Assembly (NCBI GenBank): GCA_964035545.1
Contig: OZ037767.1
Location: forward strand, 23,390,628-23,454,627
Direction: 5' to 3'
DNA length: 64,000 nucleotides
Source: Bugula neritina
Taxonomy: Eukaryota > Animalia > Bryozoa
The position numbers and the translations under genes are program-made. Shown one piece after another: positions 1,076-24,000 of the stretch. The notes beneath the pieces were generated by a model, which saw nothing but the letters and a program-made list of their open reading frames with translations, was not told the DNA's origin and searched no databases. The number at the start of each line of letters is the position of its first letter. Position 1 is the first letter of the stretch.

Positions 1076-1380
1076 TGTTATAGTTTTCAGATTTAGGGTT
1101 GATATGCTGTCCAGAGAGTCTATTTATTTGCTATAGAACTGCACCAGGATAAGTCGAGTGAACGAGTATATTTTACACACAATTATACATTATAAAAACG
1201 ATACATTACATCCAGACAAGTTATACATCTAATCTATTTGACACTCTAGCTTCGACTGACTTAGCAGCGGGAAACTATAATTGCTGCTAACTATCAAATA
1301 CGCTAATTGGCTATTCATTGTTCCGGGTCAATTACGCGACCTTACATGTTGTGCTGCTGGTAGTTCCACGAACCACCACA
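1076..1380 (-). repeat. 3' LTR (305 bp)
   Basis: Direct repeat of 8264-8568. Minus-strand AATAAA at 1123-1128. 8-bp inverted repeat TTAGCAGC...GCTGCTAA at 1261-1290. Confidence 0.97.
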
Positions 1381-1391
1381 CCGCCCCCACC
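1381..1391 (-). other. Polypurine tract
   Basis: Minus strand GGTGGGGGCGG immediately 5' of the 3' LTR TG. Confidence 0.75.
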
Positions 1392-1666
1392 AGCAGAAAG
1401 CCCTCTTTCTGATATATATAAAAAAAAACATTCATTAGTAACCGCATACATCAGTGGACAAAAATAATACATAATATACAGGAAGAGACATAATAATAGG
1501 CAGAGTCATTATAACAATCCGTTACCTACAATTGACCAGCTATAGACGAGGAATACCGGCTAGCTGTGGTATAAGACAGGGAATAACCTGTCAAGCAGTC
1601 AAGCATTTGCACGAGGTCCTGGGTTCCCCCAAGAGAATGAAGTTGCGGATTATTCTGACAGCAGAA

Positions 1667-2744
1667 CTAGTGTCCTTGTTGGGCACGCCGGTGCTTGGCT
1701 TGGCATGTACGCAGTTTCCGTTTCATACGGCATACGGATCCCTTTAGCTGGAAGAGTCCTGTTGTAGTGTTAAGTAGATCTGGTGCCAGCTGGGTGAATT
1801 CTTCTTGTAATCGCAGGAGGCGTTCTTCTACTGTGGCCAGGCGGACTGGGTCTGGGGACGGTGTCCGTCTGCGGCGCAAGGGGGGACTGGGGGACCTGGT
1901 TCGTCTCTTCGTCGGGGTAGGGGAGATCTCTCCTTCTTCTGGATATGTAATCTCCTCGGGGGTGTATGTAATCTGAGGGCGGTCAGACACCAACGGGGAT
2001 TGTTGGCGGGCGTTGTCTAATACACGTTGGAACCCCGAGGACAGAACGGCTAACAGCATGGCCTTCTTCACCAGGGGTCGTATAAGTGTGAGGAACTCCG
2101 GGTATAGCTTAGCGTCGACCACGTAGTTTTCTCCAGGGAAACAGCCCGTCGCTCGATGTCTGGTGACGGGGTAGGGATACACATCATTGTACCCGCAGGG
2201 GCAGAATGTTAGTAGGAGATGAGCATTGACGTGTAGTTTCAGGGAGCGGTGAGAGGCGCATTCTTCACCACAAATCTGGCATCTCGTCCGTCCTCTGGAC
2301 CCCCAGGCCGTTTCTATTTCTTCCTCTGTTTGTGGAGATACCCACCGCCAACGGCGGCGTAGTGGCTCAGGCCGGTCACCACTAGCATACTCCTCCGGGT
2401 GCGGAGCGGGAAGTGTTCTATCCCGTACCCTGGTTGTAGCGGGTCGAGTGTAATCTGAAAAAGTTTCAACAGTGTTAATACAGTACACTGCCGTGTTGTC
2501 AGCTTGAATAGCTTGGCAACTCCTAATTCAGTTACCTCGTAGAGATTTGTGGTAGTGAATAGTCAGATAGAACACGTATTGCAATGAGATTATAAAAATC
2601 TCTAAGTCGAACTGAGTTCTTACTACGGTATTTCACTAACCTATCTCCAGCTCGATTGACTCAGTGAGTCGGAGCTGAGTGATGCAATCTAGTTTCGTAT
2701 TAAGATATAGTTAACTCACCCCACGATCTGTTGTCGTAAGACAT
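1667..2744 (-). CDS. Retrotransposon ORF3, predicted 2 exons (2744-2720, 2454-1667; 270 aa): C2H2 + C2HC zinc fingers, Arg/Ser/Pro-rich tract, coiled coil
   Basis: ATG TCT TAC GAC AAC AGA TCG TGG G|GTGAGT donor joins in phase to TTTTTCAG|AT TAC. Motifs CQIC-x12-HVNAH, CPC-x12-H-x4-C and TKRRTRSPSPPLRRRRTPSP, with a heptad-like C-terminus. Confidence 0.75.
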
Positions 2745-2768
2745 ACTGAATGTGTGAAATGGTTTGAA

Positions 2769-4624
2769 CTACTGCTTAGAAACACGTCTACTCCTGACTG
2801 CATCAGCGTATGAAAAGATCGAGCAACGTGGTTGGGGTGCGTGATTAAGACTTTGTGCACCCGGCGGATGAATTTTGTTTCTATTTCCGCCGATACAAAA
2901 GTTGATATTCCCGTGGTGTTGACAACTCCCACATTTGCTCGATACTTTTCTCGTACGGTTTTCCCCTAGACTTTCATACACGCCGCTTTTAACGCAGTCG
3001 CATATGAAGTCCTTCAAGTATGCGGGGGGTTGCCTCGTACGCTGTCCCCTTTCTAGGGGGGGTGACACGCTTGCCGGTTCGTTAGTAGGGGCCTCTAATG
3101 GCGTCTCTACTTCACCGTTAGCGGTCACCTCTTCTTGTTCTCCAGATGGAGCCCCTCCCTCCGTGGGGGTTTGCACTTCCGGAACCGGTTCGGTTTCTGG
3201 AAGTGATGGAATTAAACTTGGCGGTGGCGGACACGCTTCTGTTGACAAAAGCTGCCGCTCCTCTCTCACCAAGTTTTCTTCCCGCGGTATGACCACTTCG
3301 TATTCAGGTCCATGCCGCCGTCGCCCGCGCGTTGTTGTCTGCCTCCTGGGCTCTAACAACGGGGGGGCTTCTCCCACTCCGTCGGGGCTAGCCCAATACG
3401 GTTTCAAGCGAGACTCGTTCTGGATAGACACCTGTCCTGAGCGCTCAATCTTGTACGTATGATTTGGCATAGCCTCGACGACCACGTAGGGGCCTACGAA
3501 CTTAGGCTTCAGTTTATCAGCCTGTCCGCGACGCCTACGGTAATTGACCATCCACACCTTATCTCCCATTTGATAGAGAGGTGGTTCATCGGAATCTTCG
3601 TGCCGCACCTTCCACTGCTGTTTGCGCAGTATATCGTGTGCGGCCTTCATCCGTTCCACTAGTTCACTGGCATACTCGTGAACCGAGTTGTCTTGCTCTG
3701 GAACGTGATAGGTGAGATGGTCAGGGACACGAGTCTCTCTCCCGAGCATCAAGAGGTTTGGGGTCTCACCAGTACTGGTGTGTGGGGTGCTACGGTATGC
3801 ACGCATGACTTGCGGCAACACCGTATCCCATTCCTCTTGACCTCGTCCAAGGAGGAGACTCCGGAGTGCATCACCTAGCATCCGGTTGTTGCGCTCCACC
3901 ACCCCGTTACCTTGAGGGTGGTAGGGGGTGGTCCTGCTCTGATTTACTCCCCAGAGGTGGCAAAGGTCGCTCATCAGTTGAGACTGGAATTGAGCGCCTT
4001 GATCAGAGTGTATCTGTTCGGGGAGCCCAAAATAACAGAATACATGTTGGTCTAGTGCCCTGGCCACTGTTGGGGCTGATGCATCTGGGATAGCCAGAGC
4101 ATCCGCCCACCTAGTAAAGTGGTCGGTTAGTACTAGGATCCAATTATTGCCTCTGGGGGTCAGGGGCATGGGTCCGACCAGGTCTACAGCGACTACTTGC
4201 CAGGGCCTACCAGCATATAGCCTCCGCCGTCCTGCTTCCCCAGGGGGGCGGCTATGCTTACTGGCCTGGCAGATCTCACACTGTTTGACTCTGAGCCGGA
4301 CGTCACGCTCCATTTGTGGCCAATACCACCGGAGTCGTAATTTGGACATCACTCTCTCGACCCCTGCGTGGGCCTGTTTGTGAGTATCCCAAATCAACTC
4401 ACGGCGGATGGCCGTGGGGCAGACTACCCTCTTCCTTTCCGGGTGTCTGCCGCTGGCAGCTAGAGAGATGGTTAGTAACCCATCCTGCCCGATCCGCAGC
4501 GAGTCCCAACGCTGACAGTATAGCCGGAACTCGGCGCATCCCTGTCGTATGCGTTCCTCGCTGGGTCGTCGCCCTTCCCTTTTGGCCCGGTATATGTCTG
4601 CCACGACTCCAGGCAGCTCTTCTT
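2769..4624 (-). CDS. pol: Pol, part 2: integrase (HHCC, DDE, GPY) with long Pro/Glu-rich C-terminal tail; out of frame with RT/RH by an apparent 1-nt deletion
   Basis: HKQAH...CEIC; VDLVGP / HSDQG / VERNN; KFVGPY; RTRQPPAYLKDF. Adding one C at ~4625 restores ...ELKKLQEELPGVVADIYRAK. Confidence 0.94.
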
Positions 4625-7330
4625 GAGCTTCTTCAGCTCTCGAACATTACCGGCCAGTACAGGGTTGGCGCGGAGGTTTTGTACACCCTCCGGGGACTCA
4701 TCAATTCCTTGCCTGAGTTGACCCTGGTCCCAGTCAAACCGTGCTCCGTGGTGAGCCAGCGTCTCCAACTCGCATCGCGGGGGACCTCCATCACTCCTCT
4801 CGATGTTGAGACACTGTTTGCAACCTCCGTCAGGTCGGCGACTCAACCCATCCGCATTGCTGTGTCTCTTGCCCGGTCGATGTTCGATCCGGTATGAGAA
4901 TTCAGCTAGGATTTCGAGCCACCGGGCGACCTGACTAGAGGGCTCTGCTCTCTTGCACAACCAGATCAGCGAGGCATGATCCGTACGCAGCCGGAACTTC
5001 CTGCCATATAGGTATGGTCTGAAGTGCTTCACTGACTTGATTACTGCCAGCAGCTCCTTGCGGGTAGTGCAGTAGTTTCGTTCAGTGGGTGAGAGAGACT
5101 TGCTGTAGTAGGCTACTACTACTTCTCGGCCTTCCTGCACTTGCGACAGCACAGCGCCAACATTTTGGTCACTGGCGTCGGTGTCGAGGATGTACTCCAG
5201 AGTGGGGTCTGGGTAGGCCAAGATGGGCGCCGTTAGTAGGCAGCCCTTGAGGCGGTCGAACGCTTCTTGTTCGACTGGGGTCCACTGCCACGTCACTCCC
5301 TTTGCGGTGAGCCGGTTTAACGGCTGTGCTATGCCCGCAAAGTCTGGTATGTATTGTCTGTAATACCCTACCAGCCCCAAGAAAGCCCGGAGTCCGGTCA
5401 AGTCTTGGGGGGTGACCCAGTCTTCTATTGCCCGTACCTTCTCGGGATCCGTTGCCACGCCGTTTCGACCGACAACGTGCCCCAGGTACTTAACCTCTGG
5501 CTGCAATAGAGCGCACTTAGAAGGCTTGAGCTTAAGACCGGCACCTCGGAGTCTCTCAAAGACCTCCTGCAGACGACTGACATGTGTCTCGAAGTCTGGG
5601 GAGATCACGATGACATCATCGAGGTAGATCAGCAGTGTCTTCCAATGGAGCCCGCTGAGGACTTGCTCCATCAGCCTCTGGAAGGTGGCTGGGGCGGAGG
5701 TCAACCCGAAATGCAGCACCTTCCACTTCCACAAACCGTCCCGTGTGATAAACGCCGCTTTCTCTTGGGCGTCGGGACTCAGAGGAACTTGCCAATAGCC
5801 ACTTAGCAAGTCTAACGTACTGAAGTACTTGCTGCCGGCTAGGGCGTCCAATGACTCGTCAATACGAGGTAGAGGGTAGGCGTCCTGTATGGTTACGCTA
5901 TTGAGTTTGCGGTAATCCACACAGAACTGCCAACTGCCGTCTTTCTTCCGGACCAGTACGACTGGCGAGCTCCACGCACTATGGGCGGGCTCTATCAGTC
6001 CCCGGTCCAGAAGATCCCGTACTTGTCGGCTAACCTCCTTCTCTTTCTCCGGCCCCAGCCTGCGTGTGGGCTGCCGGACAGGGACTGTCCCTGCAGTCAG
6101 CGGTATTTCGTGTCTGACAATTCCAGTCAGTCCCACGTCATGCTCTCCGCTGCTGAACACATCACCGTAGTCGCGTAGTAACTTAGCCATAACTTGGCGT
6201 TCTCTGTTACTCGCGCAGCCGCTACAGGCTGTGTCATACAACTCCCGGAGATGTGCGGGGACTGCCCCTCGCCCTTGAGTAGGGCACTGAGGGAGTGCCT
6301 CTGTCGCATCACCCAGCGACGGGCCTACGTCTTCCTCCTGAACAGAGTGAAAACGGCCCAGCATCGACCCAGCCGGGAGCTTGATAGACTCGGTAAAGGG
6401 GTTGACGCACTGCACTAAGATCTCCCCTTGCTCAGTCAGCTGATTCAGACTGCTGGCAAGTTGGATCTTTTCGTGCGCGCCTTCAACTACCCCGAGTCCA
6501 GAGATCCGGCTATTATTCACCCTGCAGTGAATGGTAGCCCGGGAGCGGCCTGGTATGATACGGTTGCGTACCACTTGCACACCTCCCACTAAAAGGCGGC
6601 CGAACTTGTCGACGCAGGCGAGTTCCCGCCCGGACATCATCATTGCAGATTTGCTAAAATCTATGTGACATCCGTGCCGTTTTAGGAACGGCATCCCGAG
6701 GATGGCATCCTCCTTGAGCTGACTGACTATGAACGTCTCTTGGATCGTTTGATCACGGACTCGTCCCGTCAGCTCAATTATACCATAGAAGGGAAGGCAC
6801 GACCCGTCAGCTAGGGTGCCGTACTCCCCTTCGTATGATTCCATCTCGCCCCTGACCCTAGCACTGAGGGTGTCGAAGAGTTGGCGGCTTAAGAGGTTCG
6901 TGGTACAGCCCGAATCAATGAGGAAAGTAACAGCTTTGCCTTCCAGTTTACCGGGCAAGAAATAGCTGTTCCCATGGGGCTGCACCTGAACTCTCTCTTC
7001 AGGCCTTACTCTCGCAGGGAGTACCTCCCTCGCTTTGGGTCGCGAAGGAGGTCTCTTGGGGCGGTGGTAAGTAGGCCTCGGGGGTGCCGAGGCTAGATTC
7101 CCGGCTACCTTTGTGGGCTCCCATCCAGATTCTTGGGCTTGTAGCCCTGCGAATCTGTTGTGAAGGGGCATAGCCGCGAGGCGAAGCCCCTTGCTGGTCC
7201 ATCGTGGCTGTTGCCACTGTTGGTTGCCAGTACGCGGTACCCGTCTGGGTGACCTGCGTTTCTTCTTCCCTGGGGGTTTCATCGTCGGCCCGCAGGAGGT
7301 GGGAACATCTGCGGGCCGCGGTAGTTTAAC
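4625..7330 (-). CDS. pol: Pol, part 1: aspartic protease, reverse transcriptase, RNase H
   Basis: LIDSGCT (protease), CVDYRKLN and YLDD (RT), DTDASD...KELLAV...TDH (RNase H) in ORF 4472-7390. Confidence 0.96.
7265..7330 (-). promoter_or_regulatory. Candidate -1 programmed ribosomal frameshift signal (G_UUA_AAC plus stem-loop/pseudoknot)
   Basis: Heptamer GTTAAAC at 7330-7324 in gag phase, 5-nt spacer, perfect 10-bp stem CGGCCCGCAG/CTGCGGGCCG (7318-7309/7295-7286). Loop UUCCC can pair with a downstream GGGAA. Pol lies in the -1 frame. Confidence 0.75.
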
Positions 7331-8232
7331 CCCTGATTTAGGAAGGGACAGTATCGGCGGAAATGTCCTTGATTTCCGCACTCCCAGCAAAAGCTGACTG
7401 TTTCTCCCTGTGGCGGCGCCGGTGGCCGCATGGGCTCAGGGGCGGTACTCACTGGGGTTTGTGGTGTCAGTGTTGCTATCAGCTTGGCTAGCATGTCTGT
7501 CAGTTGAGTGACTTTCGATGCCGTCGCCAACTGGGACACGGCAGCCGCGGCGGGGGTTTCCTCCCCTTGTCCCGCGGCCGTGTCTGCGCGGTCTATCTCC
7601 ACTTGACGGGAGCTTCCGCGACTTTTATGCATCTGATTAGCTAGGAGGTAAGCTTCCCCCTCAGTCAGAGCATCTTCAACGGTGGTGACTCCCCTAGCTA
7701 GAAACTGGTGGTGGAGACCCAGATCGTCGACAGATGCTATGAAAGCGTCGAGGGTATACCTCTCGCGGTTGACTGGGGGCAAGTCGCTGTACGCGATCTG
7801 TGCCAGCTTCATGACCGCGGCGGCGTGCTCCCGCAGCGGGGTGCGGGGATCACGCCGCAACCTCTGCAATCGGGCCCTGGCATCTGTAGCAGAGAGGCCG
7901 AAGCGGGCCCGCAGAGAAGCAAAGATATTATCAATGTCTACGCCCAGCCCATAAGGCTTGGCTTTGTCCATCAATGCCATTCTAAGCTTCAGCAAGGCCA
8001 CCCTAGGGGGCCACTGGGCGACGTCCATTACGTCGCTAAACTCTTGGATAAACTGTTCCACCTCCTCTTCACCCGTGAAGGTGGGCGCCTTTAACCGGTA
8101 GCGGTCTTCAGTTAGTTCTCGCGGAACCCTTCGCTCTTCTACTACATGGTTAACAGGCATTGTCTCTACAGCATTGTCTCTACGCTCAACTTCTACTGCC
8201 GGTGGTTGAGTTCCAGCATTTTCAGTCTCCAT
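7279..8232 (-). CDS. gag: Gag (317 aa) with a single CCHC zinc knuckle
   Basis: ATG 12 nt after the PBS. Capsid-like motif APTFTGEEEVEQFI. Knuckle CWECGNQGHFRRYC. Confidence 0.93.
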   Translation of the reverse strand: METENAGTQPPAVEVERRDNAVETMPVNHVVEERRVPRELTEDRYRLKAPTFTGEEEVEQFIQEFSDVMDVAQWPPRVALLKLRMALMDKAKPYGLGVDIDNIFASLRARFGLSATDARARLQRLRRDPRTPLREHAAAVMKLAQIAYSDLPPVNRERYTLDAFIASVDDLGLHHQFLARGVTTVEDALTEGEAYLLANQMHKSRGSSRQVEIDRADTAAGQGEETPAAAAVSQLATASKVTQLTDMLAKLIATLTPQTPVSTAPEPMRPPAPPQGETVSFCWECGNQGHFRRYCPFLNQGLNYRGPQMFPPPAGRR

Positions 8233-8244
8233 CTTGGATGCACT

Positions 8245-8262
8245 ATCCCACTGCTGCCACCA
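8245..8262 (-). other. Primer binding site complementary to the 3' end of tRNA-Leu
   Basis: Minus strand TGGTGGCAGCAGTGGGAT, 1 nt after the 5' LTR. The plus strand ATCCCACTGCTGCCACCA resembles the 3' end of metazoan tRNA-Leu(AAG/TAG) plus CCA. Confidence 0.85.
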
Positions 8263-8263
8263 C

Positions 8264-8568
8264 TGTTATAGTTTTCAGATTCAGGGTTGATATGCTGTCC
8301 AGAGAGTCTATTTATTTGCTATAGAACTGCACCAGGATAAGTCGAGTGAACGAGTATATTTTACACACAATTATACATTATAAAAACGATACATTACATC
8401 CAGACAAGTTATACATCTAATCTATTTGACACTCTAGCTTCGACTGACTTAGCAGCGGGAAACTATAATTGCTGCTAACTATTAAATACGCTAATTGGCT
8501 ATTCATTGTTCCGGGTCAATTACGCGACCTTACATGTTGTGCTGCTGGTAGTTCCACGAACCACCACA
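8264..8568 (-). repeat. 5' LTR (305 bp)
   Basis: Matches 1076-1380 except at two positions (1094T/8282C and 1295C/8483T). Adjacent to the PBS. Confidence 0.97.
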
Positions 8569-8570
8569 CC

Positions 8571-8680
8571 AGTGATACATGTGCTCGTACTCAGTCTCAT
8601 GATGATAGACCATAGTCGGTGTCATAGTATAATCATACTCATAGTGATACTGATACCTATACTGATAGTGATAGGAAATG
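8571..8680. repeat. Continuation of the degenerate ATAGTG/ATACTG tract, right flank
   Basis: atcatactcatagtgatactgatacctatactgatagtgatagg. Confidence 0.6.
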
Positions 8681-9692
8681 TATTAGCTGCAACAGGTATA
8701 ATTGCATAAAACATAGAAAGTCAAGCAAAATTAGAAAAAAAATCTTGCTTATTCAGCTGTAATTGTTAATATTTTATCAGTTTAATGCAAGAAACTATAT
8801 TCACTAGCAGCTAAACTGTGAACAATAACTAAAAACTAGAAATATATAGTGTGTAATTAATTAATTAAAATGACCCATTACTAGAAAACCTACTCATTGA
8901 GCTAATAGTGGTAAATAAACAGGATTATGATGTTCAAAAGCTGATAGGGCTTGCAAAATCAGGCTGGGCTAAGAAGAACACTCACTTATATATGACAAAC
9001 CCCGCAGCTTTAGAGATGATTTGTTGAACATGCCTTACAATGGTCTTAAAATTTGCGTAAGAAAGCAAGATAATAAAACTGTCGCGTTTTAGTTACAATG
9101 GCTTAAATTCAAAACTTACAGCTCGTCATACACTTTACTCAATCACTATGGCATGAGATTTGCAAAAAAAGTATTGAAATTGCATTTCATGCAAAAAAGA
9201 TCCCTTCAAACAGTAAAAACCTTTGAGATGCAATCCAGCACCACTAACAGAAGCAAATCTATTCAAATAATGCAGAAGCAATTATTTAACTGTAATAGAC
9301 TACCATCTGTACTATTTTGATTATGATATTCTAGGATGCAATGGCACAGTGGAAATAGTTCATCAGTAAAAATATGCTCTAATAGATTTAGCATTTTAAA
9401 AATTGTGCGACAAAATAGTCCACAATTTAACTCGTTATTTTCTAAATTCCACAAAGCTTGTAATTTCAGCCATATGAGTAGCTCAAACTATTACTTGTTA
9501 ATGATGGCAATTACTAAAATTTATGCCCCCTCTTATGCTTCAGCATTTTTAGGCAGTGAGCACAATCCATTTTTCTATACCACCCATGTTTTATGTTTTA
9601 AATATAAAATTAAATATTGAACATTTATTTTTATAATCGGTTGAAGTTATTTGATTTATGCTGTAAATGTATGAGTTTTACAGACAGGCGCT

Positions 9693-12600
9693 ATGTTGGC
9701 GTTAGAGGAGCAACTCCGTGAGATGTTGCAATGCAAAATTTGCTTTGATGACAAAGAAAAGCAAAAGTTACTACCATGCCAGCATACTATCTGCTTGGAC
9801 TGCCTTAACAGATTAGCTGTAAAGGATTCCAGATATAAGTGCCCGCTATGTAATAGAGTATGTACATAGATCAACTAACAAATTACAGTAAAGTTACAAA
9901 TTGAATTTTATTCAAACTCAATTTTCTGTGTTTGGTAACGTATAAAATTAACCATGAATGTGTTGAATCAATTGGTGCAATGTAACAGTTCACATTATGG
10001 TGCAATGTAACAGTTCACATTATGGCCACAGTAAATCGAATGTGTTAGTGGAAGAAATGATCTCAGCTGCCTCAGCAGATAAATATATAGGAGAGACTCA
10101 CTGTGATATTGGTGCGATAACTGAGGTTGCTTTATTGCCTCATTCAACTATGAAAAGAGTGATTTATATTGCTTGTGCCTTCTTTTCTATGATATGAATG
10201 CTTGAAGGCGGTTTTTTCAAATTTACAGGAAATGCTGGTCCCAAATGGTGGGTTTGAGACTTTGCAGGAGAGTTTGATAACAAAGCAACTTGCTCATTTA
10301 ATTACTCCTCGTGATGATACCAGGCCACCCACGCCTTCTGCTCGGCCATCTAAAGGTAACAGTGAACTGTGCTTGTTTCCTTCAATGAGGTTGCTGTTTG
10401 ATCAGCAAGGAGTTGAAAATGCTGTTTTGTTACTCTATAGTCCATAAATATATATTGTTGTGTGAAAAATATTTTGACTAGACATTCCATAATGAGTCAT
10501 GCTTCCTTCAGGTTCTGAACTTCAAGTTGGTTTTCCCCGAAAAATCAAGGGTAACTTTTTCAGTTAAACAATGATGCAATATGTTTGCATACAGTTATAG
10601 GCAGTCCAGCTACTCCAGCTGTGCCAGAGAGGGAAGTAACACCTCCAAGTCAACTGGATGAAATTCAAAGAAACTTGAATGCAAAAATTTCCAAAGGAAA
10701 AGATGTACTAGCTCAATCCCAAAACAAAGTAGGTGTCTTATATATCTCTTTCATATGATTGAACTTGTTGAAATTCTTTAGAGGTCTTCAATAAAAATAC
10801 ACAAATTTTATGTATGACTACATCACATAATTATTCCTTAATTAAATGCATATTTCATTCATGTACTTCACTTAATATTTCACTGTGACACAAGATTATA
10901 TTGTTATTCTGTGTCTGTTTTTTAAATTTGGATGCATGTTATATGTATGCTGTGGTGAAGTGGATAGAGTGCTGGCCTAGGAAGCATTAGGTCAGGGGTT
11001 AAAGCCCAAACGCTGGTGCTGATGTTAGGAAGAGTATCCAGTCATAATTTTGCTCCTGTGCTACACTAGAAGAGTCTCAAGCCGGCTTTAAAGAGCCCTT
11101 TCTTATGTAATTTTTTTTATTTGTATGAAACAGCTATAGTTTGTATATGTGGAGATTTCTTATTTCTTTTGCACCTTTAGGTGAAATGCTACACGTCATC
11201 ATTGGATGACCTAGAACAAACAGCAGAGCGTATGAAGTCTTCCATCAACAATCTTATGGAGCAAACCATTGATAAACTTATGGCCAATGCTAGTAAAAAG
11301 GTGACTGATTGTTCCTTCAGTTTCATACACTTCTTTATTCACTGAGAGTTTGGAGGAGAAGTTCCTCAGTTCTAAAATGAAGTGACTGAGCTCAACCTCA
11401 TATTCATGTTTATGATGATTCGTTACAATGTACAACAATTTTATACAATTTTCAAGTTATTTTATTCAGACAAACTTTAAGTTTCCTTAAGAGACACCAT
11501 GAATAAAAATTCAGTGTTATAATTCAACAAATATAATTTTTAAAACATGTTTTGTCACTGAGCTTTAGAAAACTATAATACTAAATTTGTATTTCACAGC
11601 CCACTTTGATACTGCATTTTCTGGCGTAGAACTATGTAAATTATGCAAATTTGGAAAAAACTCAGGTTTAATAGCTAACACTGTACCCATAAAATTAGTA
11701 CTTGTGACATATTTTTATTACAGAACCTGGCTGAGTTGAGAAGAAGTAAAATATTTACTAAGTTTAAGTTTTTTTTTAGAGTTAAACTTAGTAGTAAAAA
11801 TAGTTTAGCTTTTATCAATCTTATCACATTTGAGGGAAAAAAAGCTTTTAGCAGTTCTTACTAATCAAGTTATGAATTTGTATCAAGACATTCAAGTTGA
11901 TTAAAATCTGCTTAAGTTTTCAATAAATTTTTAAAACCTGGAGAATAATTTATAATTGAATTTAATATCTTTTCTCTATTTGCTCATTTGCTGCTGTCCA
12001 TACAACTAAGTTTGTATTGAATCTTCAGGTTCAAGCTATTGAAGAGTTAACCCAGAAGAAGAATGAGGAGATTTTAGCTATAATATGCCAGTTATCGGAT
12101 ACAAACACTAAGACTGCTAGAGGAGTGGCGCTTCTAGAAAGAAGGCTCAACAGTCTTCAGTCCAATTACTCTATGAATTCAGTTGCTGATGATATACATA
12201 ATGCCCAGGCCAACATTTCCACTCTGGAAGAATTTATAACCAAACTTGGTGTGTAAATTATGTTACTACCAGTAAACATTACTCATGTGTTTTAGGACAG
12301 TTTTTGGTGTTCAAGTATTTATTTTCATCTGTTGGCTATATTTCTACGTATTAGCAAACGTATATCTGGCGTTCACAGTTGACCTAATACTTGCTAGCTT
12401 GGAATGATAATGCTTCTATTAAATAACATTTTAACCAAGTTAAGAAAAACTTTAAAGGTGTGATAAATTAATGTGTATGGTTTTCAAGAACGAATATTTC
12501 TTGAGCTTCCACTCTTCAAATTGGTAAACCAACTGTAAAAAATATTTTTTGTCAAGTATTAGTCAAAGTATTAAATGAAAATTTATTAATTCTGAAAAGA

Positions 12601-15600
12601 ATACTTGTATTCAACTGTAATTTTGCAATAAATAATTTGAATAGCAGACTGTCATTTAAAAAAACGATACCATACATGTTTTCTAGTTTATGTAATAGTG
12701 TAATTTATTTAGTTTCCTTCCATATGTTGAGTGATTGTATTTAACCTACTGACCTTCCTTGCTTACCATTTAAGCTATTTTTAATGCTAATTCCACTGAT
12801 TAGTATAGTGCTTGCACAAAATTTCTGCATTTTATTGAGTTCAATTTAAAAGTTAAATTGAAGGTTTAGAACTTTGTCTCTAAATCAAGTGTGTTGTGAG
12901 CTGTACTGTCAGTTAAACTTTGTCTCTATCCAATCTCACATTGTCTTGTTTCAATGAAACTCTGCCAGTTTTCATACAGTTAGTGTGCGAGTTATAAGAT
13001 TTTATATAGACCACATCCATCACTTCAGTATTTGGTCTAGTGGGCCAATTTTACACATACAGGAGTAATTGTAGGAGTAGCTGCCTCAATAACTATTGCT
13101 GAGGAGGAGTAAGTCATGTTAACTAGTGTAAGTTCTATCAGCTAAAGTAGGTCATGCTATTTGGTGTAAGTTCTATCTATTAGCTAGAGTACGTCTTATT
13201 AACTGGTATAAAGGGTATAATGTTGTTTACTTCAGATTCAGTTGCTGGTACATTTCGAGCTGGTGACAGTGTAAGATTAAGAATGGATGACGGAATGCTG
13301 GACTCAGAATTTCTGTTGAGTGATTTGAACCACTATAGTATAGGATATATACACACTGTTGATGATGACGGAGATGTGAGTTGATATGAGTATTGTACCA
13401 TACATACAGAGTATTACTTGTGTACCAAACATACAGAGTATTACTTGTGTACCGGGTACATACAGAGTACATACAGAGTATTACTTGTGTAGTACATTTG
13501 TAATATTCCATGCATAAGTGAAATTTTTTTCATTCTGTAGTGTGCTGTGCTATTTGCGGAGAATTCCAGATGGACTGGAAATATTTCTCAATTAGAAAGG
13601 TCAGCCACAAAACACACGCTGCCTGTGGTAGGTGATAGAGTGAGAGTGAAACCTTCCGTCGTAGAACCACACTTCAAGTGGGGAATGGTGAAACCAACTA
13701 GGTAAACCTGCTACTGTTTATTTACTGTAAGTTAAAGGACACCTTGAATATGCCCATACCAACCCATATCACTCGTTGTGTGTGATATGTTGAGCTTAAT
13801 TAATAAACTCATGGCTATTTATAGTCTCCATTCCTGTCAGAGCCTCTGATAAAAAGGGTTTTTAAGGGGGTTAAAGACTGTGCCCCTCATTATGCTGGCA
13901 ACTAGATTTGCAGCATTTCGAAGTAACACACTGATGCCCTGCTGAATGTTGAACTTATTTGATGTTACACAGCTGCAAAATAAATGAATAACGTCTGATT
14001 TCCAAATGTTCATGAAATGTAAAAAGGAATGAATAATCACTGTATTATAATATAAATTTAAATTATCTATATTTTCAAAAATGAGAGCTAGTCTTAAATA
14101 CTTCTAATCTAATATATAAATTTTGTGACCAATATGCATACTGCGCACCTTCTATCTCCTGTAGATGATAATGTAAAGTACTATTTTTTTAGCATTGGGA
14201 TGCTCTCAGAACTGAAAAACACAGGACCTAAGCAAGGCAGGCAGGTGGAGGTTGACTTCCCAGAGGATCATGATTGGACAGGATTGTTTGATGAGTTGGA
14301 GAAAGTGGAGGTTGAACCACTTAAGGTCCGTATTGCTTTCTCTCCTCAACTCCTTCCTCTTCTCTCCACCCTCTCTTCACCACCCTTTCCATCACCCACT
14401 TTTTTCATTTCGCCTTCTCTTTCCTTCCTCTTCTGTCTTTCACACTCAATCCCCTTACTTATTTTCAACTCCCCCTCTCTCCTTATCCCTCTTCTTCTTC
14501 TCATTCCCTTCCTTTGCTCTTCATTCTCTCTTTCTCATTTTTTTACTGCTTTTCTCTCTTTCTCCTCTGCCTTTCTCTTTGCATGCATTTATACTTTCGA
14601 GATCATCCTAGGTTTTGAATTGAAAGTTTAGTGTTATCAAAATTTTATTATACTCATGGCAATCTCATTCATTACCTAGAACTAGAACTACCTTTAGTAA
14701 ACATTTTCTAAGCAATGGTTTTTTGCTGCCCAAGCTTCAAATTTAAATTTAAATGCATTTGTTATTTTGTTATATATAAGCTATATATGTTAACCACATT
14801 TAATTCTTCAACTGTAATTGCCTTTGTATTTTTAGTATGTATATAATATCTGTTTTATGAATGCAATTGTAAGTATTGTAGTAAGCAGTGGTTACACTTT
14901 TGAGATATTTATTTAAAGTTTTTTTACATTCTTTTAAATTACCAATTCTGCAATTTTTACTCTTTTTGGAACCTTTGGCATGAGTCAATTGCAACTAAGC
15001 TTACAGTATTTTATGTACGTAATAGTGAGCACTTACTCTGGACATTTAAGAGAATGTAGCTAAATATCTCACCAACACATTTTGTATGCATCACAGTAGT
15101 TCAAGTGTGTCTCTGCTATGTAGGTAGGAGATGATGTTTGGATTGCTAGTAACATCACCGAACCGGTGAGAGGCTGGGCAGGAGTAACTGCAAATAGTGT
15201 AGGCACTTTGCTCTCTGTTCACGGGGAGGATGTGGAAGTGAAATTCCCCGAGTGTGAGAATTGGAAAGGTCTTCTGTCGGAACTGGAGAAAGTTAGACCC
15301 ATTACTGTGGGAGACAAAGTCAAGGCAAGTATTACTTGATGCAAATATCTTTATAGAAATGGAGGTTGTTAGTCAACACTAAAAATTATCTCAATCCACC
15401 AGACTTTTTGTTTCTAGTTCTTCTATACCAGTGCAAAGTAGAGTTAGTGATGAATATAAAAGGAAAGAGCAAACAAGAATAACTTGCAAATGTTATTCGT
15501 GTGATATTTTGTCACTGGAGACTTTGTTAAAGACTTGTGACTTAAGCTGCTAACATAGCCATTGTGCTCACCTAGGACAATCGAATCATTCAATTTATAG

Positions 15601-17093
15601 AGCAGAAGCTTTTAAAATAATTTAACACCAGCGCATAATAATGCTTAGTTAATCAATGTATGCAGTTTCGTTTAAGAGCTTTCTGGGAATACCCACAGTC
15701 ATATTGTAATCAACTGGTGATAAGATATTACGCTAATTGTAAAAGTCTGGGTTTCTAACTTTAAACGTTTAACTTAACAAAACTTGCTACCAACTCCCGT
15801 CTTTTATGAAAACCCAATAGATTTTTCACTGCTGAGTAAAACTACAAAGTTCTGATTAGCTGTAGGTAATTGGATGACTCACTGATCGTTGTTACATCTC
15901 TCAGATTAGTATTTGTAATGTTCTGATAAATTCTAGGTGAAGAGGTCTGTGACGGAGCCGAAGTTTGCGTGGGGTGGAATTAGTCACGACGATGTGGGTA
16001 AAGTCGCAAAAATACTAAACAGTTCTGAGCATGGTTAGTGTTCACTTTAAATCAATTAAACTTTCTATTAATGCATTGGCAAATAGATATAGTTGTCCCA
16101 AGGCTTTGGCTAGCTGGAAGATTGTAGTGTAGCCTGAATAAACAATATAGTTGGGAACTATCTTTATCTCTAAGTCTAAATGTTGACTATGATAGCAGAA
16201 TCACTGCATTAGCATAGCTACACTATTTTATCAGTTATACATGCATGTAGTAGTTATGTTTTTATCATGTGGACATGGCAATAATTTTATAAATGTTTGA
16301 ATTTTTGTTCATGTTTTGGGAGATTTTAAATATTAAATGCCCGTAACTGCAAAAACACAGAAATAGAATTATTAAAGAAGTTAGATTTAAATAATTTATT
16401 TTGTTTATAGAATTGTTTAACTCCCAAATATCCAGTTATAACATGTGTAGCTCTGTGTTTGTAGGTCAAGTGGCAAAGATAGATTTCCCGAACAGGCTAG
16501 GACTATGGCAATGTCTGATGGATGAGATTGAGATTGTTAGCCGACACACCGGGAGTGATCAGAGTAGCCGCAGAGCCAGGAGGTCTAGCGATCTTCAGTG
16601 AGTCATATTTATTTTTCTTGAAACAAGTTGAATTCTGTGGAACTGGTTGGCATTCAGACTTTCAGACTTTATAAAAAAGGAGTAAATAATTTTTTGAGAG
16701 CATTTCTAAGGAAAAGGTCTCATTTCTATCATATTTTTTTTAGCAAATTGTTATTAAAATACAGATTTAGAGGCAAGAGATTTACGAGGTTTCAATTACC
16801 ATGATGCTATTTTTAGTTCAGTCGTTGTACTGCACAAGATTGGCTGAAAACCTGCTGTTCTTTTAAAAAGATTTATTTTAAAATATAGGAATTTATTTTT
16901 AGTCTACAGCTAAAGTTGATTCACAAATTTAATAATTTCTGGCTTCAAAAATTATTAATTGTCTTAACTTAGCCAATTTTTACAAGCTTGATTTCAGACC
17001 TATGAACTATGGGTAGTGTTTGGGTTTAGTTGTGCGTAGAAGTTGTTGGCTAACATTTCTTTCTGTGTTATATTTAGATGCCCTACGCAGTAG
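9693..17093 (+). CDS. RING-HC E3 ligase-like protein: RING, Pro-rich linker, coiled coil, four HERC2/KEG-like SH3-type repeats, C-terminal CaaX (CPTQ); ~546 aa
   Basis: Phase-consistent exons 9693-9857, 10229-10355, 10601(or 10595)-10728, 11181-11300, 12029-12248, 13236-13375, 13541-13701, 14193-14325, 15124-15324, 15937-16033, 16465-16597, 17078-17093. RING CKIC...LPCQHTICLDC...CPLC. Repeats VGDRVRVKPSVVEPHFKWG...VDFPEDHDWTGLFDELEKV. Confidence 0.88.
9973..10022. repeat. Perfect 25-bp tandem duplication in intron
   Basis: TGGTGCAATGTAACAGTTCACATTA x2. Confidence 0.9.
10950..11050 (+). mobile_element. Degenerate tRNA-derived SINE-like fragment
   Basis: A-box-like TGGTGAAGTGGATAG and B-box-like GGTTAAAGCCC, followed by TTAGGAAGAGTATCCAGTCATAA, which resembles a common invertebrate SINE body. 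Confidence 0.35.
13395..13492. repeat. Intronic minisatellite (~27-bp unit)
   Basis: CATACAGAGTATTACTTGTGTACC, about 3 copies. Confidence 0.85.
14330..14580. repeat. Polypyrimidine (CT-rich) low-complexity intronic tract
   Basis: Almost only C/T on the plus strand. Confidence 0.8.
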
Positions 17094-18085: not shown

Positions 18086-21000
18086 TTAGCTGAGGGTCAA
18101 CCATTTTGGTCCGTATCTCAGTCTTTCTCTCCTGTTTCTATTTTCTATTTTTTGTCTCCTCAGCTCTCTCAGAATACGGGCTAAGCTTGGGTCAGGCTCT
18201 CTGGCAAGAGATCTGCCACTGCGGAAACTCATATCACTAGTCCCTCTAGCAAACCTGTAGCCTTGATTGTCGTATCCAATTTTCTTAGGAAACAGAATCA
18301 TTCTTTCACCATCTGGTCTTCGTACAGGTCTGGGCTGTTGATAGTTTCTGTTGAAGATAAACAACTGATAATAAAGCAGTTTAAGTGTGAACTCAGTTGC
18401 ATGTGTGGAAATAATTAAAACCAATCAAGGATGGTATATACTAACATAATATTATTTTAACTTTATAACTTTGTATAAAATTCTGCAGCTTTGAATATAC
18501 AGTGCATTCTTCAAAACCAGTAGGTTCGAAGTGAGCAAGTTTTGTCGATTTTATTTCAATCCATAGCTAAACCTCTCCCCCCTCCCTAAATTTATCACAT
18601 GCTTCAAAACAATTTAAAGTATATATATCCTAAGCAACAGGTACTTTCATTTAGCAGGGACAAATTTTAATAGCCCAAGTTTTCTAATTTCTTTATAAAT
18701 TACAGTTTGAAATCAAATTTAATTTATTCTTTTGTTACATTTAAAATTTTAAGCACACAAGCTTTTCTCAATTTCTCCTATACTGCACCTATCTCTAGCA
18801 GAGTTGACTTATATAATTAAGTAGAGGTTATGATAGTAAGAATACAGAATTAATGTCCATCTCTTATTGGCTAGGAGCTTTACATACTCATGCACTGTGA
18901 CTTTTGAAACTATAAGTCTAATAAAATAAAGTCTGATCCTGTTGAAAATGCAGTTAAATCATCTCAACCTATTGGTATGTAAGTAAGCAAATCACAATCT
19001 ATGACCTGTGTTTTCTATGTTTATGTTTAAGATATTTACTGCAAGTATCTTGATAAACTGTTTATATTAACACATCACAGGAAAATTGCAAGGTTTTTCT
19101 ACTAATTACTAGTTCCAGTGTTTGTGCTTTACCCAGGTGATGAAACACGTTATCATAACATAATGTGATGTTGAATAGCCAACAGACTAATGAACTAGTG
19201 ACTAGCTTCACCCACATTGCCTGGTCCAAAACACCAGTGGATATGTTGAATTTCGTTGCCATTAGAGATTTTATATTATATAAACAGGTCTACCTTTCAT
19301 ATTTTGGAGGAGATACCATAAGCACTTTTTGTCTGGTTTTTGGAACTTTGGTTGCTCTAAAGTTTATTTTTAGAGGTTGTCTACCTCTACCTCTCCTTTC
19401 TTTCTTCATTGTTTGTTTTGGCTTTACTGGCGTCTTTTTAGGGTTTTTTAAGCCTAACGCCTAGAAATTTGCAGAAAAGGAAGATGTTGGCTTTAACTAT
19501 ACAGACAAAATTTTAAACTATACCAAGGCTTTAAAATCTCATTTAGTACAACTGATCAAAACTTTAAGGAAAATTTGAAATTTTCAAAAACTTAATTATG
19601 GAAAACTGGCTGCCTAATGTCAAAATTATGCAATGCTGAATTGCAAAAATGTTATTACCAGAGAAAAACAGTTTAGTCTAACTCACATAGACTTGCAGCT
19701 ATGCCAAAATGATATGTTTAGCAAATTTAAAACATTAATAGTAATAATAAATTATAGCTCATGAGAAGCTAACAGGACTGCTTGTTTAAACGCTATATCA
19801 AAATTAATATCATATGGTTGTTTTGAAAAAATAGCTTAAACGTTATTAATTATTTGAACTAATTGAGATTTTTAAACAACTTTATGTTGATGACATTTCA
19901 AAATCTTTGTTTTTAAGGTTTTAAAATATCACTTTAGCTCTAACCCGATAGAACTTGGAGTCTTCTTTAGCAGTAGTTACATTGATAACTTCACCAGAAC
20001 TACCTACTAGTACTACGGGATCAAATGTCTTGTCAGAATCACTATCTACAAAGAAGTTCATGCAATTAGAATTTTTTGAACCTTATAATACAAGTTAGTA
20101 CTATAGATTAATTCTTGATAGGCATTTAAAGTCTGATATAAAAAACTGCTCAAGCTTTTTAAAAAATATAAGGAACTTTTAAAATTTTATCTAAATTTTT
20201 TTGAAATCTATAAAAGTACCATTATCTTGGCTTTTTGGTGCGTCAGCTTCTTCCTGGTTTTCGGTTTCTGCATCTTTAGTACTTGATAGTTTTTTATCTG
20301 TTGAAGGAATAGCCTCAATAATTTTGCTGGGATCTTCAGTGATTTTGTCGGGATCTTCAGTGATTTTGTCGGGATCTTCAGTTATTTTGTCAGAATCTTG
20401 AGTTTTTTCAACTTGCGGGACCACCTCAACTTTTTTTGGAGTATCATTATTTACTTCTCTTTTGGCAGTAGAAGAATTGTTTGTGGAAAATTTCGTGCTG
20501 GAGACTTTTTGCTTGTTTTTGGAAGGTTTAGTAAGCTTTTTAGGAATGTCTGGTTTTACTACTGCATCGTCATTTTTAGGAGTTGTCTCTACTTTAATTG
20601 GTTCTTCAGATCTTCTTGGCACTCTTATCTCTTTTGTAGACCTATCTCCTGAATTACAAACAGTATAAATACTAATATACTGCAATTTCTTTTATAAAAG
20701 TTGCAACAAACAACAGCCACCAAAGACATTCATTATGAGAAAATATTGTCCAATTCTGACAAAAATAAACTTTACTTATTATAAATCTAGACATGCATGT
20801 ACTGGTTACTGTAGAGATGAGTTGCCCCAGTAGCTCCTATGTAGTGTGATGTTAAGCACGCCAGCTTGCAAGTTGGAATTCTGAGGTTCAATTCCTAGTG
20901 GAGGCAGAAGTTTTTACAGTTACCAGATAAAGTACATGACAAACAGACACCAACAGCTCACAACATAAGAACTATATTATACAAACCTGCGTAAGGAACA

Positions 21001-24000
21001 GTGCTTGGTATTCTGTATTCCGTTTCACCTACTGGAGGGAGCAGAGCCACCTTCATTCTCTTGCATTTCGGATACTTTGAAGTGTTGCTCAAGACTTGAT
21101 GGTCAAGTTTGCCCTGATCTCGCTGCTTCCAATTCACCAGCATGTCTGTTAGATCTCTTTGGAGTGAATCATTGTAAGCATCACACATTTTTGCACGCTG
21201 CTCATCAGGTGTGTTGGGTTTTAGTGGTTTTGGAGCCAAAGCACTTTGCTTATAATTTTTAGTGGTTTGAGGCTTATTGTTCTCAATATGAATTTTTACT
21301 GGGTGGTTGCTCGTTGAGATTGGTGGTGCATCTTGTTGATTCGTCTTCATGCTTTTTCCTATGCTGTGAATTGCTTTCCAGATTGCTTCATGGATGCTGT
21401 TTGTTGAACTTGATGGACAATGCTTGTCAGAGGATTTGTGAGTTTTGTCTCGGTGCCGCTTTGCTCGACGCCGTTTTGCTCGTAACTGAGCTTCTTGCAA
21501 ATCCGTTCTTTGGCCAAGTTGCTGTTGGTCTAAATGATCTAGCGTACAATGCGGTTCATCTTTTTGATTTAATAATTTCTCAATCTCATCTAAATTTAGT
21601 ATTTTGTTTTCTGTTTCCAATGGTTGAACCTTTAATTGAGGAGAAAACATTTCTTTTTTATATGATTTATTTCCATATGATGGCATGTTTATTTTGGGCT
21701 TGAACACCAATCTCTGAGTTTGATTAGATGGATGGCTAGACTTCACTACTGAGGAAGGCTGCGCTTTCTTCTTTGATTTATGGCCACGGCTTTTTCCATC
21801 AAATCTATTTGCAGGGTGTTTATAATTTAGGCATGATTCTGCAGTTGAACAATCAGCAAGCTGAAGTTTCTTTCTAGGATAAGTGTGCAGACGGCTTTGA
21901 TCAAGTTGTTTTGATGAATGTGTACAAGTTTGCACGTGTTTTATGTCACTTTTACTGTCACTAGCATATTGGTGTTTTACTTCCTTACATTTGAATTTTG
22001 TTCCATGTCTTTTGATAATTGGGGAAGTTGTAACTTCAAGTTTCACACTGTTTCTTAGTGGTTGATATTGTTTTCTGTATTTTCGTACTTGTGACTTTTG
22101 AGCTCCATTGGGCTTCTTACCAGAAAGTTTATTTTCATCTCCACAAGTGGTATAAATAGGATGTTTATACTTTCTTCTAGATGGTTTCATAATACAATCT
22201 GTCAACTCACTGCTTAAAGAATCATCCTGTATGATTGTTTTAGATATTGGCCTCTTGTATGCTAGATAGTACTGCTGTGTGCTCATCCTGTTACAGTTTT
22301 CACAATTCCTGCAATTTGCTAACTTTTTGACTCTTGTCCTTTTTGATATTCTTCTGATGGTTTGTAGGTGATCACTATTTGGAATTTCCAAAGTTCTGTT
22401 TGGTGGCTGGTTTGTCATAGTGCTCTTTGAGGCTGTTGGGAGTACCTTTAGAAAGCGAGTAGTTTCACTTTCAAATTCATAGGGCTTGTAGGCCAATGTT
22501 GATTCTGGAACTATCTTGAAAAATTTTGGCCTCTGGTATGCTACAGTCACGTTAAAGAGTTGATCAGTGTAAACACATGCTGATATTAAACAGTTTTTTA
22601 TTACAGATTTTTCATAGTTGTACATATGTATAATTTAGCTTTAGTATGTACATACAAATAAATGTTTCTATAGGGTGGCTGCACATATTGATAAACTGAG
22701 AAAATACAGCAATACAATGAGAAGTTTTGCTTATGTATGTTTAGAATTGAAAAAAATCTGTACTTTCAAACCAAAAAACTTTTTTTGCATTTAATTGAAG
22801 TTACAAGTACAAAAGTATTTAAAATCTAAATGATGTAATCATGTAGTAGCAATTCTTCACAACTTTTATATTACTAAAATAGTAAAGTAAACACTCTGAA
22901 CTCTGGGGTAGCAAGTTTTGCAAAACCATTTCACATTATACTACATATCTATTGAAATACCTGTTTGAGCTTTTAGACTTTGAGAGTAGCTAGTATCACT
23001 TAGACATGAATGATCAGAGTTGTATCTTCTACTGTATTTCATTCTGGGTGTGCAAAGAGGTGTCAAGTCAGATGTGTTGTTATGTTTTGCTTTATTCCTG
23101 TTAATAAAAAGTTATAACATTTTTTTTGATCAAAATTGATTATTTTACTACTTTGATTTACTTTTGTGTCAAGTTAGTTAAGTTAGTCGCATACTATTTT
23201 AATCTTATTTGTTTTATTTGGCTGAATAACAATTTTAAATAATAATGAACTAGTAAATAACAGGAAATAGAACGAAATAACATCAAAACTAATGTTAATA
23301 TATGGTATACTGTATATTGCAACTTGTAGGGATATTTCTAATATATAGTTTATATTGCAACTTGCAGTGATAATGCTAATTTTAAAGAAGTTGAACACCT
23401 TTGCCATTCTTTGTGCTTTAACCTTGACTTCGTCATCAATCCTAGCCCAGCATTCCGGGAACATCTCTTTCCCTATAAGTAAAAGTTGTTTACACATATT
23501 TGTATAATAACCCATAAATTTATGGTTTTATGGTTTTTATTATGATGAATTTATTCATAATAATAATAATAATAATTAAGTAAACACTGCAACGGACTAA
23601 GGACTAAAAATAATCATTTTTTTGGTATTTTCAGAGCTGAAATGGTGATTGAATAAAGATACACCAAAATAAAATAGCCATACCTGGGGCACTTTAGGCA
23701 TGAAATATTTGTTCCAAATGCCTTTGAGTTTGAAAAGCAGCTGTCTATAAAGATTGAACTGCAATCCCTTAAAAGAGGCATAAAATATATAAAAATTACT
23801 CAAATACACAACATAATACAATGTCACAAAACTGTTGGTAGCAGTGTGACGAGTTCGAAAAGTCTGGTAGTCAGAAGTGTATAGACAAGTAGCATACAGC
23901 TTGCTAATCCAGTTGAGAGTAAATAGAGTTGTGAATATAAGTAGACTTTATTTCTCTAGTAAGATATGCACAGATGAATTTATAAAAATGAACTGATTCG

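Follow-up and report, generated by a model that had tools for sequence, protein, structure and literature searches.

A conserved RING and coiled-coil protein with four HERC2-like barrel repeats and a CaaX end in the bryozoan Bugula neritina

The forward strand of a 64,000-nucleotide stretch of the Bugula neritina genome (GenBank assembly GCA_964035545.1, contig OZ037767.1, positions 23,390,628 to 23,454,627; hereafter the window, to which all coordinates refer) carries at positions 9693–17093 a predicted gene for a protein with an N-terminal RING-HC domain, a coiled coil, four barrel repeats and a C-terminal CaaX motif. Splice-site testing joined 12 exons into 1641 nt, encoding 546 amino acids (aa) and a stop codon, with ten GT-AG introns and one GC-AG intron, whose donor follows position 15324. 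Exon 1 (9693–9857) encodes an N-terminal helix and the RING (C14–C53, 9732–9851), followed by the linchpin residue Asn54 (9852–9854). Exon 2 (10229–10355) contributes a post-RING helix as in the RING flank of TRIM proteins as well as the start of a proline-rich linker, which ends in exon 3 (10601–10728), where the long coiled-coil helix begins (aa 115 at about 10651). The coiled coil continues through exon 4 (11181–11300) and ends in exon 5 (12029–12248; aa 220 at about 12148), which adds short helices resembling the TRIM L2 segment. The degenerate repeat 1 occupies exon 6 (13236–13375) and runs on into exon 7 (13541–13701), where repeat 2 starts, to be completed in exon 8 (14193–14325). Exon 9 (15124–15324) holds repeat 3 and the beginning of repeat 4, which extends through exon 10 (15937–16033) into exon 11 (16465–16597), together with an arginine-rich tail bearing an RRxS-type site. 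The 16 coding nucleotides of exon 12 (17078–17093) specify the CaaX motif CPTQ (17079–17090) and the stop codon. For exon 3, six pairs of boundaries were tried, four of which left the frame open, and the 546-aa version fits the orthologue described below with 5 gap positions in 546. A candidate 22-nt exon at 11724–11745 was rejected, because its inclusion disrupts the reading frame and is not needed for alignment with the orthologue. Intron 8 contains a low-complexity CT-rich tract (14330–14580) and intron 6 short tandem repeats (13390–13500).

A search with exon 9 returned, as a single match among 39 longer candidates, the RefSeq protein XP_067945984.1 of Watersipora subatra, which is collinear with the window protein and 68% identical over all 546 aa. 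Together with XP_067945983.1, it shares the domain order and the CPTQ end. The gene is thus real, conserved and uncharacterized, with an anonymous model already existing in a relative. The proposal of the earlier note that the RING and the repeats belong to one gene is supported by this single collinear protein, and its failure to recognise a named family is matched by the RefSeq label ‘uncharacterized protein’. The orthologue differs by an N-terminal extension of 68 residues with a myristoylation-type start, which was not found in the window. Because of these additional residues, the window gene model is probably 5'-incomplete, with one or more upstream exons missing. An in-frame splice acceptor at 9684–9692 (AG ending at 9683), 9 nt upstream of the annotated ATG, is the probable join to the unlocated upstream exon(s). 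No matching exon was found in positions 1–1075 or 8569–9640 by a scan for MG starts, tblastn with PAM30 and enumeration of splice donors outside a 7.5-kb long terminal repeat (LTR) retroelement situated 1.1 kb upstream; the first exon(s) therefore probably lie to the left of the window. In one sequencing run, the contigs over the gene are unspliced and contain no exon joints; this run may be the source sample itself and is uninformative on expression.

Further copies support the exon structure. Many exon-sized open reading frames (ORFs) recovered in the searches match the window protein up to the exon borders of the window, and the eight that were looked up are ENA/Logan records. A metagenome scan reduced 55 pattern matches to three loci carrying the gene, none of which reaches the first or last exon. 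One 4.8-kb contig (L003) holds exons 2 and 4–9 in order, with matching intron positions at the exons checked, and another (L001) has a GT donor at exon 9, where the window has GC. Comparison of the window with the metagenome contigs over 248 codons gave a pN of 0.20 versus a saturated pS of 0.88. At the level of sequence, the window copy is under strong purifying selection, and its repeats are position-specific and slowly evolving (65–89% identity). No named animal besides Watersipora was found to have the gene among 20 records looked up, which does not show its absence elsewhere.

The RING of exon 1 is of the C3HC4 type (Pfam zf-C3HC4, 33.7 bits at a cut-off of 21) and closest to those of TRIM56, TRIM32 and TRIM2; Foldseek matched the TRIM2 RING with a TM(target) of 0.72–0.78. 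All eight zinc ligands are present, as are Ile16 and Pro51, which contact the ubiquitin-conjugating enzyme (E2), and the flanking helices. At 89% identity, the RING with its helices is one of the best conserved regions of the protein. A B-box is absent: only H78, C143, C200 and H237 are available between the RING and repeat 1, and Pfam detects none in the orthologue. Pfam, a hidden Markov model (HMM) of the repeats and the count of Cys and His residues thus agree with the initial description of the 546-aa spliced frame as a RING-HC, a coiled coil and four repeats without a B-box. Likewise, the earlier assignment as a ubiquitin ligase (E3) appears probable, given the complete set of zinc ligands and the E2-contact residues, and on these sequence features the window protein is very likely an active E3.

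Of 12 family RINGs checked, 8 have Asn as the linchpin, i.e. the residue following the last RING cysteine, and all five outside rows (two fish, one KEG and two protist sequences) have Arg there. In TRIM8, an Asn linchpin renders the RING selective for UBE2N and lysine-63-linked (K63) chains and disfavours E2s of the UBE2D type (PMC13769585). TRIM8 residues E11, I17 and P53 have counterparts in E10, I16 and P51 of the window RING. By analogy, a UBE2N/K63 preference has an even chance of applying here. Several observations speak against it: the remaining 4 of the 12 family RINGs have Gly, Val, Cys or Lys as the linchpin, the essential ubiquitin-contacting E12 of TRIM8 is replaced by Met11, and the Asn-linchpin ligases RNF20/Bre1 act with UBE2A/Rad6 (PMC13769585). 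Because of the latter two, UBE2N is not certain.

An AlphaFold2 (AF2) model of the orthologue, built from a 91-row alignment, has a mean predicted local distance difference test (pLDDT) of 75 and a predicted template modelling score (pTM) of 0.43, compared with a pLDDT of 39.6 in a single-sequence run. It comprises the RING with its flanking helices, a disordered linker, a helix of 106 residues, two short helices and the four barrels. The layout of the long helix and the short helices resembles that of the TRIM coiled coil and L2 segment, and the Pfam family TRIM_CC had no match in the orthologue scan. A homodimer prediction for orthologue residues 66–330, for which the 91-row alignment was not used, scored 0.53 versus 0.00 for the best of three controls. 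The predicted dimer is antiparallel about residue 234 and spans residues 184–287, with contacts 223–245, 234–234 and 198–273; agreement between the runs covers no less than 42% of the contacts, and pLDDT values are 60 or above. In microbes, 21 of 30 solved pairs and none of 23 single chains attained the mark applied. The corresponding figures for eukaryotes are 17 of 29 pairs, counting 7 of 16 from animals and 1 of 7 that had no older relative, and none of 30 single chains. Based on this prediction, the window protein forms a dimer with good probability. Some caution comes from the pTM of 0.43, which leaves the domain–domain geometry of the AF2 model unfixed, from the possibility that the dimer score merely mirrors solved TRIM coiled coils known to the predictor, and from the run itself, which concerns the orthologue and lists an interface without RING residues.

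An antiparallel rod of this kind, about 15 nm in length, could also serve a protein whose RING is weak or inactive, i.e. a scaffold or tether that is lipid-anchored at both ends and bridges or shapes membranes, or that needs a partner RING. The non-Arg linchpin, the Met at the position of TRIM8 E12 and the lipidation motifs at both termini of the orthologue would suit such a role. However, the RING and its helices belong to the best conserved parts of the protein, E2-contact residues included, and we regard the tether as improbable.

The four repeats (aa 260–322, 329–393, 397–456 and 458–523) were delimited at 43–73 bits with an HMM seeded on the repeats of the window protein and the orthologue and iterated on 161 stored proteins; their periods are 69, 68 and 61 aa. 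The consensus proposed earlier fits repeats 2–4 but not repeat 1, which is degenerate and lacks the P-x-x-x-W-G loop. In Pfam, the orthologue matches SH3_15, the family of the barrels in Mind bomb REP, KEG and HERC2 INBD, with 49.5 bits (cut-off 24), and the AF2 model displays the five-stranded barrel fold. Single window exons remain below this cut-off, since the exon borders cut the repeats. In the ESM Atlas, exon 9 led to SH3_15 clusters with a recognition value below the threshold of the tool, and the repeat region gave no usable match. Exon 9 matches HERC2 (9L8Y) with an E value of 1.3e-8, and HERC2 is the only solved sequence relative of the barrels. Foldseek likewise found HERC2 INBD (9L8Y/9L93) at 26–28% identity, which makes it the closest solved relative in both sequence and fold, followed by MIB1 REP (4TSE/4XI6/4XI7) at 12–16% identity and E values of 1e-5 to 1e-6. 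Spt5 KOW arrays, which held the top Foldseek ranks, were set aside as generic SH3-like barrels (11–16% identity).

In functional terms, barrels of this family are recognition modules. MIB1 REP binds the tails of Notch ligands. HERC2 INBD is a five-stranded barrel that, together with the CPH domain, binds [2Fe-2S]-loaded NCOA4 and serves its turnover via lysine-48-linked (K48) chains (PMC12318192). In plant KEG, the repeats suffice on their own to pull down MAPKKK18 (PMC11020294); they also mediate interactions, with dimerisation as a further possibility (PMC3697954), and are required for recruitment to the trans-Golgi network (TGN)/endosome (PMC3355576).

With HERC2 INBD as best solved relative, the window protein could be imagined as an iron-sensing ligase that has taken over NCOA4 recognition and binds an Fe-S-loaded partner, and the W-G loop, whose contact with NCOA4 is made by backbone atoms, is indeed kept in repeats 2 and 4. 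Yet this loop forms the core of the family wherever such repeats occur, and no repeat retains all four side-chain contacts K2655, Y2656, K2677 and Q2686 (alignment count; repeat 2 by eye). These are only partly kept, as K, F, Q and R in repeat 4, H, F, R and D in repeat 2 and V, R, E and C in repeat 3, with the loop itself missing from repeat 1. Moreover, HERC2 is a HECT ligase with a single barrel beside its CPH domain, and the window protein has no such partner domain. An iron sensor is therefore the least probable of the functions considered here.

With the TRIM family, the window protein shares an N-terminal RING-HC with flanking helices, a coiled coil of about 105 residues, short fold-back helices, a predicted antiparallel dimer and a C-terminal recognition module. 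In contrast to TRIMs, it lacks a B-box, has SH3_15 barrels in place of NHL or PRY-SPRY and ends in a CaaX motif. Plant KEG likewise combines an N-terminal RING with tandem HERC2-like (SH3_15) repeats, which in KEG serve substrate binding and TGN/endosome localisation. However, the kinase and ankyrin region of KEG (P0014) is absent according to Pfam scans of the orthologue and KEG, 12 repeats stand against four, and the window protein adds the coiled coil and the CaaX motif; lettuce KEG, which was checked, has an Arg linchpin, unlike Asn54. The Mind bomb proteins MIB1/2, whose REP structures are 4TSE and 4XI6/7, are animal RING E3s, and their tandem barrels belong to the same Pfam family. Mind bomb also carries MZM and ankyrin regions and C-terminal RINGs. 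The Pfam scan of the orthologue showed no MIB_HERC2/ZZ domain, ankyrin repeats or C-terminal RINGs, and the window RING is N-terminal. The protein probably works like a TRIM, yet is neither a TRIM (no B-box), nor KEG (no kinase or ankyrin region), nor Mind bomb.

The nearest architecture in animals is found in fish TRIM25-like proteins (Pygocentrus XP_017538314.2/XP_017538316.1, Colossoma, Metynnis and Coilia), which combine RING and/or coiled coil with 3–7 barrels. Fish RING–B-box–coiled-coil proteins of Pygocentrus, Colossoma, Metynnis and Serrasalmus have 3–5 repeats, one of them being automatically named ‘KEG-like’, and the Coilia model is RING-less with seven. They differ from the window protein by their B-boxes, a TRIM25-type RING with Arg linchpin, a TRIM_CC match and the lack of a CaaX motif. 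Their repeats are near-identical and recently amplified, in contrast to the slowly evolving, position-specific repeats of the window protein. A set of fish records (P0022, P0156–P0161, P0009 and P0037) consists of TRIM25/finTRIM-like proteins with 2–7 HERC2 INBD-like barrels (E 1e-18) at the PRY-SPRY position. For a recent capture of the barrel module, they may offer a more promising case than the window gene. Because the fish half is TRIM25-like and the window RING is nearest to TRIM56/32/2, the fish and bryozoan fusions, judged by sequence, are probably independent.

A wider search at 50% clustering found 2443 proteins at E values up to 0.001, of which 150 were listed, 45 scanned with Pfam and 20 looked up by name. 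Among the matches scanned, plant KEG, fish proteins and proteins of two unclassified eukaryotes (protists) have an N-terminal RING with a barrel array, and barrel arrays are also fused to calpain, SPRY, caspase-like, thioredoxin, kinase and WW/C-terminal RING domains. Several of these repeat proteins begin with MG or end in CXXX, and records P0010, P0020, P0031, P0035, P0036 and P0007 combine the array with calpain (with EF-hands), caspase-like or SPRY/Neuralized domains. The idea that the pairing of RING and repeat array is special to plants and the window gene has to be dropped, as it is also present in Mind bomb, fish and protist proteins. The known parts are thus found in an order with close parallels. 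In the literature of an open library, no description of the gene or its architecture was found by queries on KEG repeats, HERC2/SH3/Mind bomb REP, fish TRIMs and bryozoan TRIMs/E3s, nor any paper on fish TRIMs with HERC2-type barrels; subscription journals lay outside this search. In the available text of salmon and rockfish expression studies, ‘KEG-like’ appears as a gene label only.

W. subatra has at least five divergent paralogue models (P0011, P0021, P0026, P0029 and P0101; about 30% identity), and four of its paralogues lie on one chromosome-sized contig. In P0011, P0021 and P0029 as well as in P0055, a second internal coiled coil splits the barrel array, i.e. a unit of coiled coil and repeats is duplicated. 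Repeat trees were computed from 125 rows and then from 39 of these, over about 60 columns and with no true HERC2 or MIB row. In these trees, the repeats of the bryozoan proteins cluster according to their place in the array, repeat 1 joining repeat 1 and repeat 3 its counterpart, and the array is therefore older than these paralogues. Deep branches have no supported grouping, and none of the monophyly hypotheses was rejected by the approximately unbiased test (p-AU of 0.078 for bryozoan plus KEG, 0.138 for bryozoan plus fish and 0.31 for a single bryozoan clade). Of the convergence postulated by the earlier note, an origin separate from KEG remains likely on account of the missing kinase and ankyrin region and the TRIM-like RING, but the repeat tree does not show it. 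A set of diverging paralogues, together with the fish proteins that carry the array at the PRY-SPRY site, could suggest an analogue of innate-immunity TRIMs in which the barrels act as a pathogen- or effector-binding head. Against this, the strong purifying selection and the slow repeats are unlike a fast-evolving receptor, and we consider such a role very improbable.

The C-terminus ends in both species with a basic, Arg-rich patch, the RRxS-type site and CPTQ, and identity extends to 10 of the final 11 residues, compared with 5 of the 12 just before. A yeast farnesyltransferase screen of all 8000 CXXX sequences reports for CPTQ an enrichment of 1.33 (farnesylated CASQ 1.61; control SASQ 0.13), an HM score of 4.36 (cut-off 3) and a Ras_HM of 2.44 (PMC10320760). 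These scores fit farnesylation without later trimming, and the window protein is likely to be farnesylated at its CaaX cysteine, Cys543. The case is weakened by several points: most CXXX sequences were farnesylated in this screen, which makes the CPTQ score weakly specific, and Pro at the a1 position is absent from its top 5% (PMC10320760). In addition, the CaaX motif is known from two species only, and a CXXX end is missing from all four named W. subatra paralogues that carry repeats. At the other end, the 68 extra residues of the orthologue begin with M-G-S-E-S-S-K. Met-Gly-x-x-x-Ser is a myristoylation-type N-terminal consensus. Since this start is known from the orthologue only, which again calls for caution, myristoylation in the window species is an evenly balanced proposition. 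Two lipidation signals, one at each terminus, would be unusual for a RING ligase; we know of no well-studied example, and a search of the open-library literature for dual-lipid RING ligases gave a general review only.

Alternatively, the protein may be a soluble or chaperone-like E3 or scaffold, whose C-terminal Cys is farnesylated for protein contacts (Ydj1-type shunt) or remains unmodified, and which builds K48 chains on cytosolic targets. CPTQ does resemble the shunted CASQ/CKQQ class by its high Ydj1 score and its Ras_HM of 2.44. Known members of this class are not simple membrane residents. HERC2, moreover, uses the same barrel for K48 turnover, and neither an MG start nor a CXXX end was found in any of the W. 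subatra paralogues checked. However, the Arg-rich patch before the CaaX motif and the MG-x-x-x-S start of the orthologue are two separate lipid signals and thus point to membranes, and the Asn linchpin disfavours UBE2D-type E2s in TRIM8. A soluble E3 therefore seems rather unlikely.

We somewhat favour a membrane-anchored, B-box-less, dimeric TRIM-like ubiquitin ligase of bryozoans that is farnesylated and holds membrane-proximal targets with its barrels. This reading starts from direct observations on the gene model and its domains, on the conservation of the CPTQ end and on Asn54. Two chains would pair head-to-tail into an antiparallel rod of about 104 residues and 15 nm, which would bring each RING to the end occupied by the barrel array of its partner. 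The farnesyl group and the basic patch, joined by an N-myristoyl group if the N-terminus of the orthologue is shared, would hold the protein on the cytosolic face of a membrane. In analogy to the HERC2 and KEG modules, the barrels may bind short stretches of membrane-proximal proteins, although such substrates by themselves fall slightly short of an even chance. A target held at the membrane could then be ubiquitinated in trans by the RING of the partner chain, and the Asn linchpin might steer the ligase towards UBE2N and K63 linkage, in which case the chains would mark targets for sorting or signalling more than for the proteasome. A more elaborate version appears doubtful. In this case, the ligase would be lipidated at both ends (N-myristoyl and C-farnesyl), with each tip of a 15-nm antiparallel rod carrying a RING, four barrels and two lipids. 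The rod would lie along or bridge membranes and form UBE2N-dependent K63 chains in trans, with a phosphorylation switch beside the farnesyl cysteine, and the protein would represent one of several independent events in animals that turned the HERC2/KEG barrel into the recognition head of a TRIM-type protein.

Upstream of the RING gene, positions 1076–8568 (minus strand) are occupied by the retroelement, a full-length element of the Ty3/Gypsy type, whose LTRs of about 307 bp are 99.3% identical. Its ORFs encode a gag-like protein (7279–8265), protease–reverse transcriptase–RNaseH (4472–7435) and integrase (2769–4646), and its flanks show no perfect target-site duplication. An extra ORF of 286 aa between integrase and 3' LTR (1667–2527, minus strand) has, by eye, a C2H2-like Cys/His pattern and no Pfam match at 0.001. 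The likely location of the retroelement is the first intron of the RING gene. Downstream, the minus strand contains two large ORFs (558 and 166 aa) of a low-complexity gene without a Pfam match (20191–22634), a 261-aa ORF that by eye resembles the 3' part of a LINE reverse transcriptase, likewise with no Pfam match at 0.001 (34708–35493), and exons similar to diacylglycerol kinase zeta/iota (about 40913–57281, extent by eye) with DGKI and ankyrin matches at 42825–43160 and 40913–41212.

The earlier note had missed several features, namely the CaaX motif, the Asn linchpin, the family of paralogues, the probable 5' extension and the predicted TRIM-like antiparallel dimer. By itself, the window gene opens no major question. 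It does contribute an E3 architecture that had not been described before, from a phylum that has received little study, and it marks the HERC2-INBD/KEG/MIB barrel as a mobile recognition module of RING ligases from plants, fish, protists and bryozoans. The conserved Asn linchpin would allow the rule put forward for TRIM8 to be tested independently. Finally, as a compact protein with four barrels and slow, position-specific repeats, it may become a tractable model for the ligands of such arrays, which are poorly known even for KEG.

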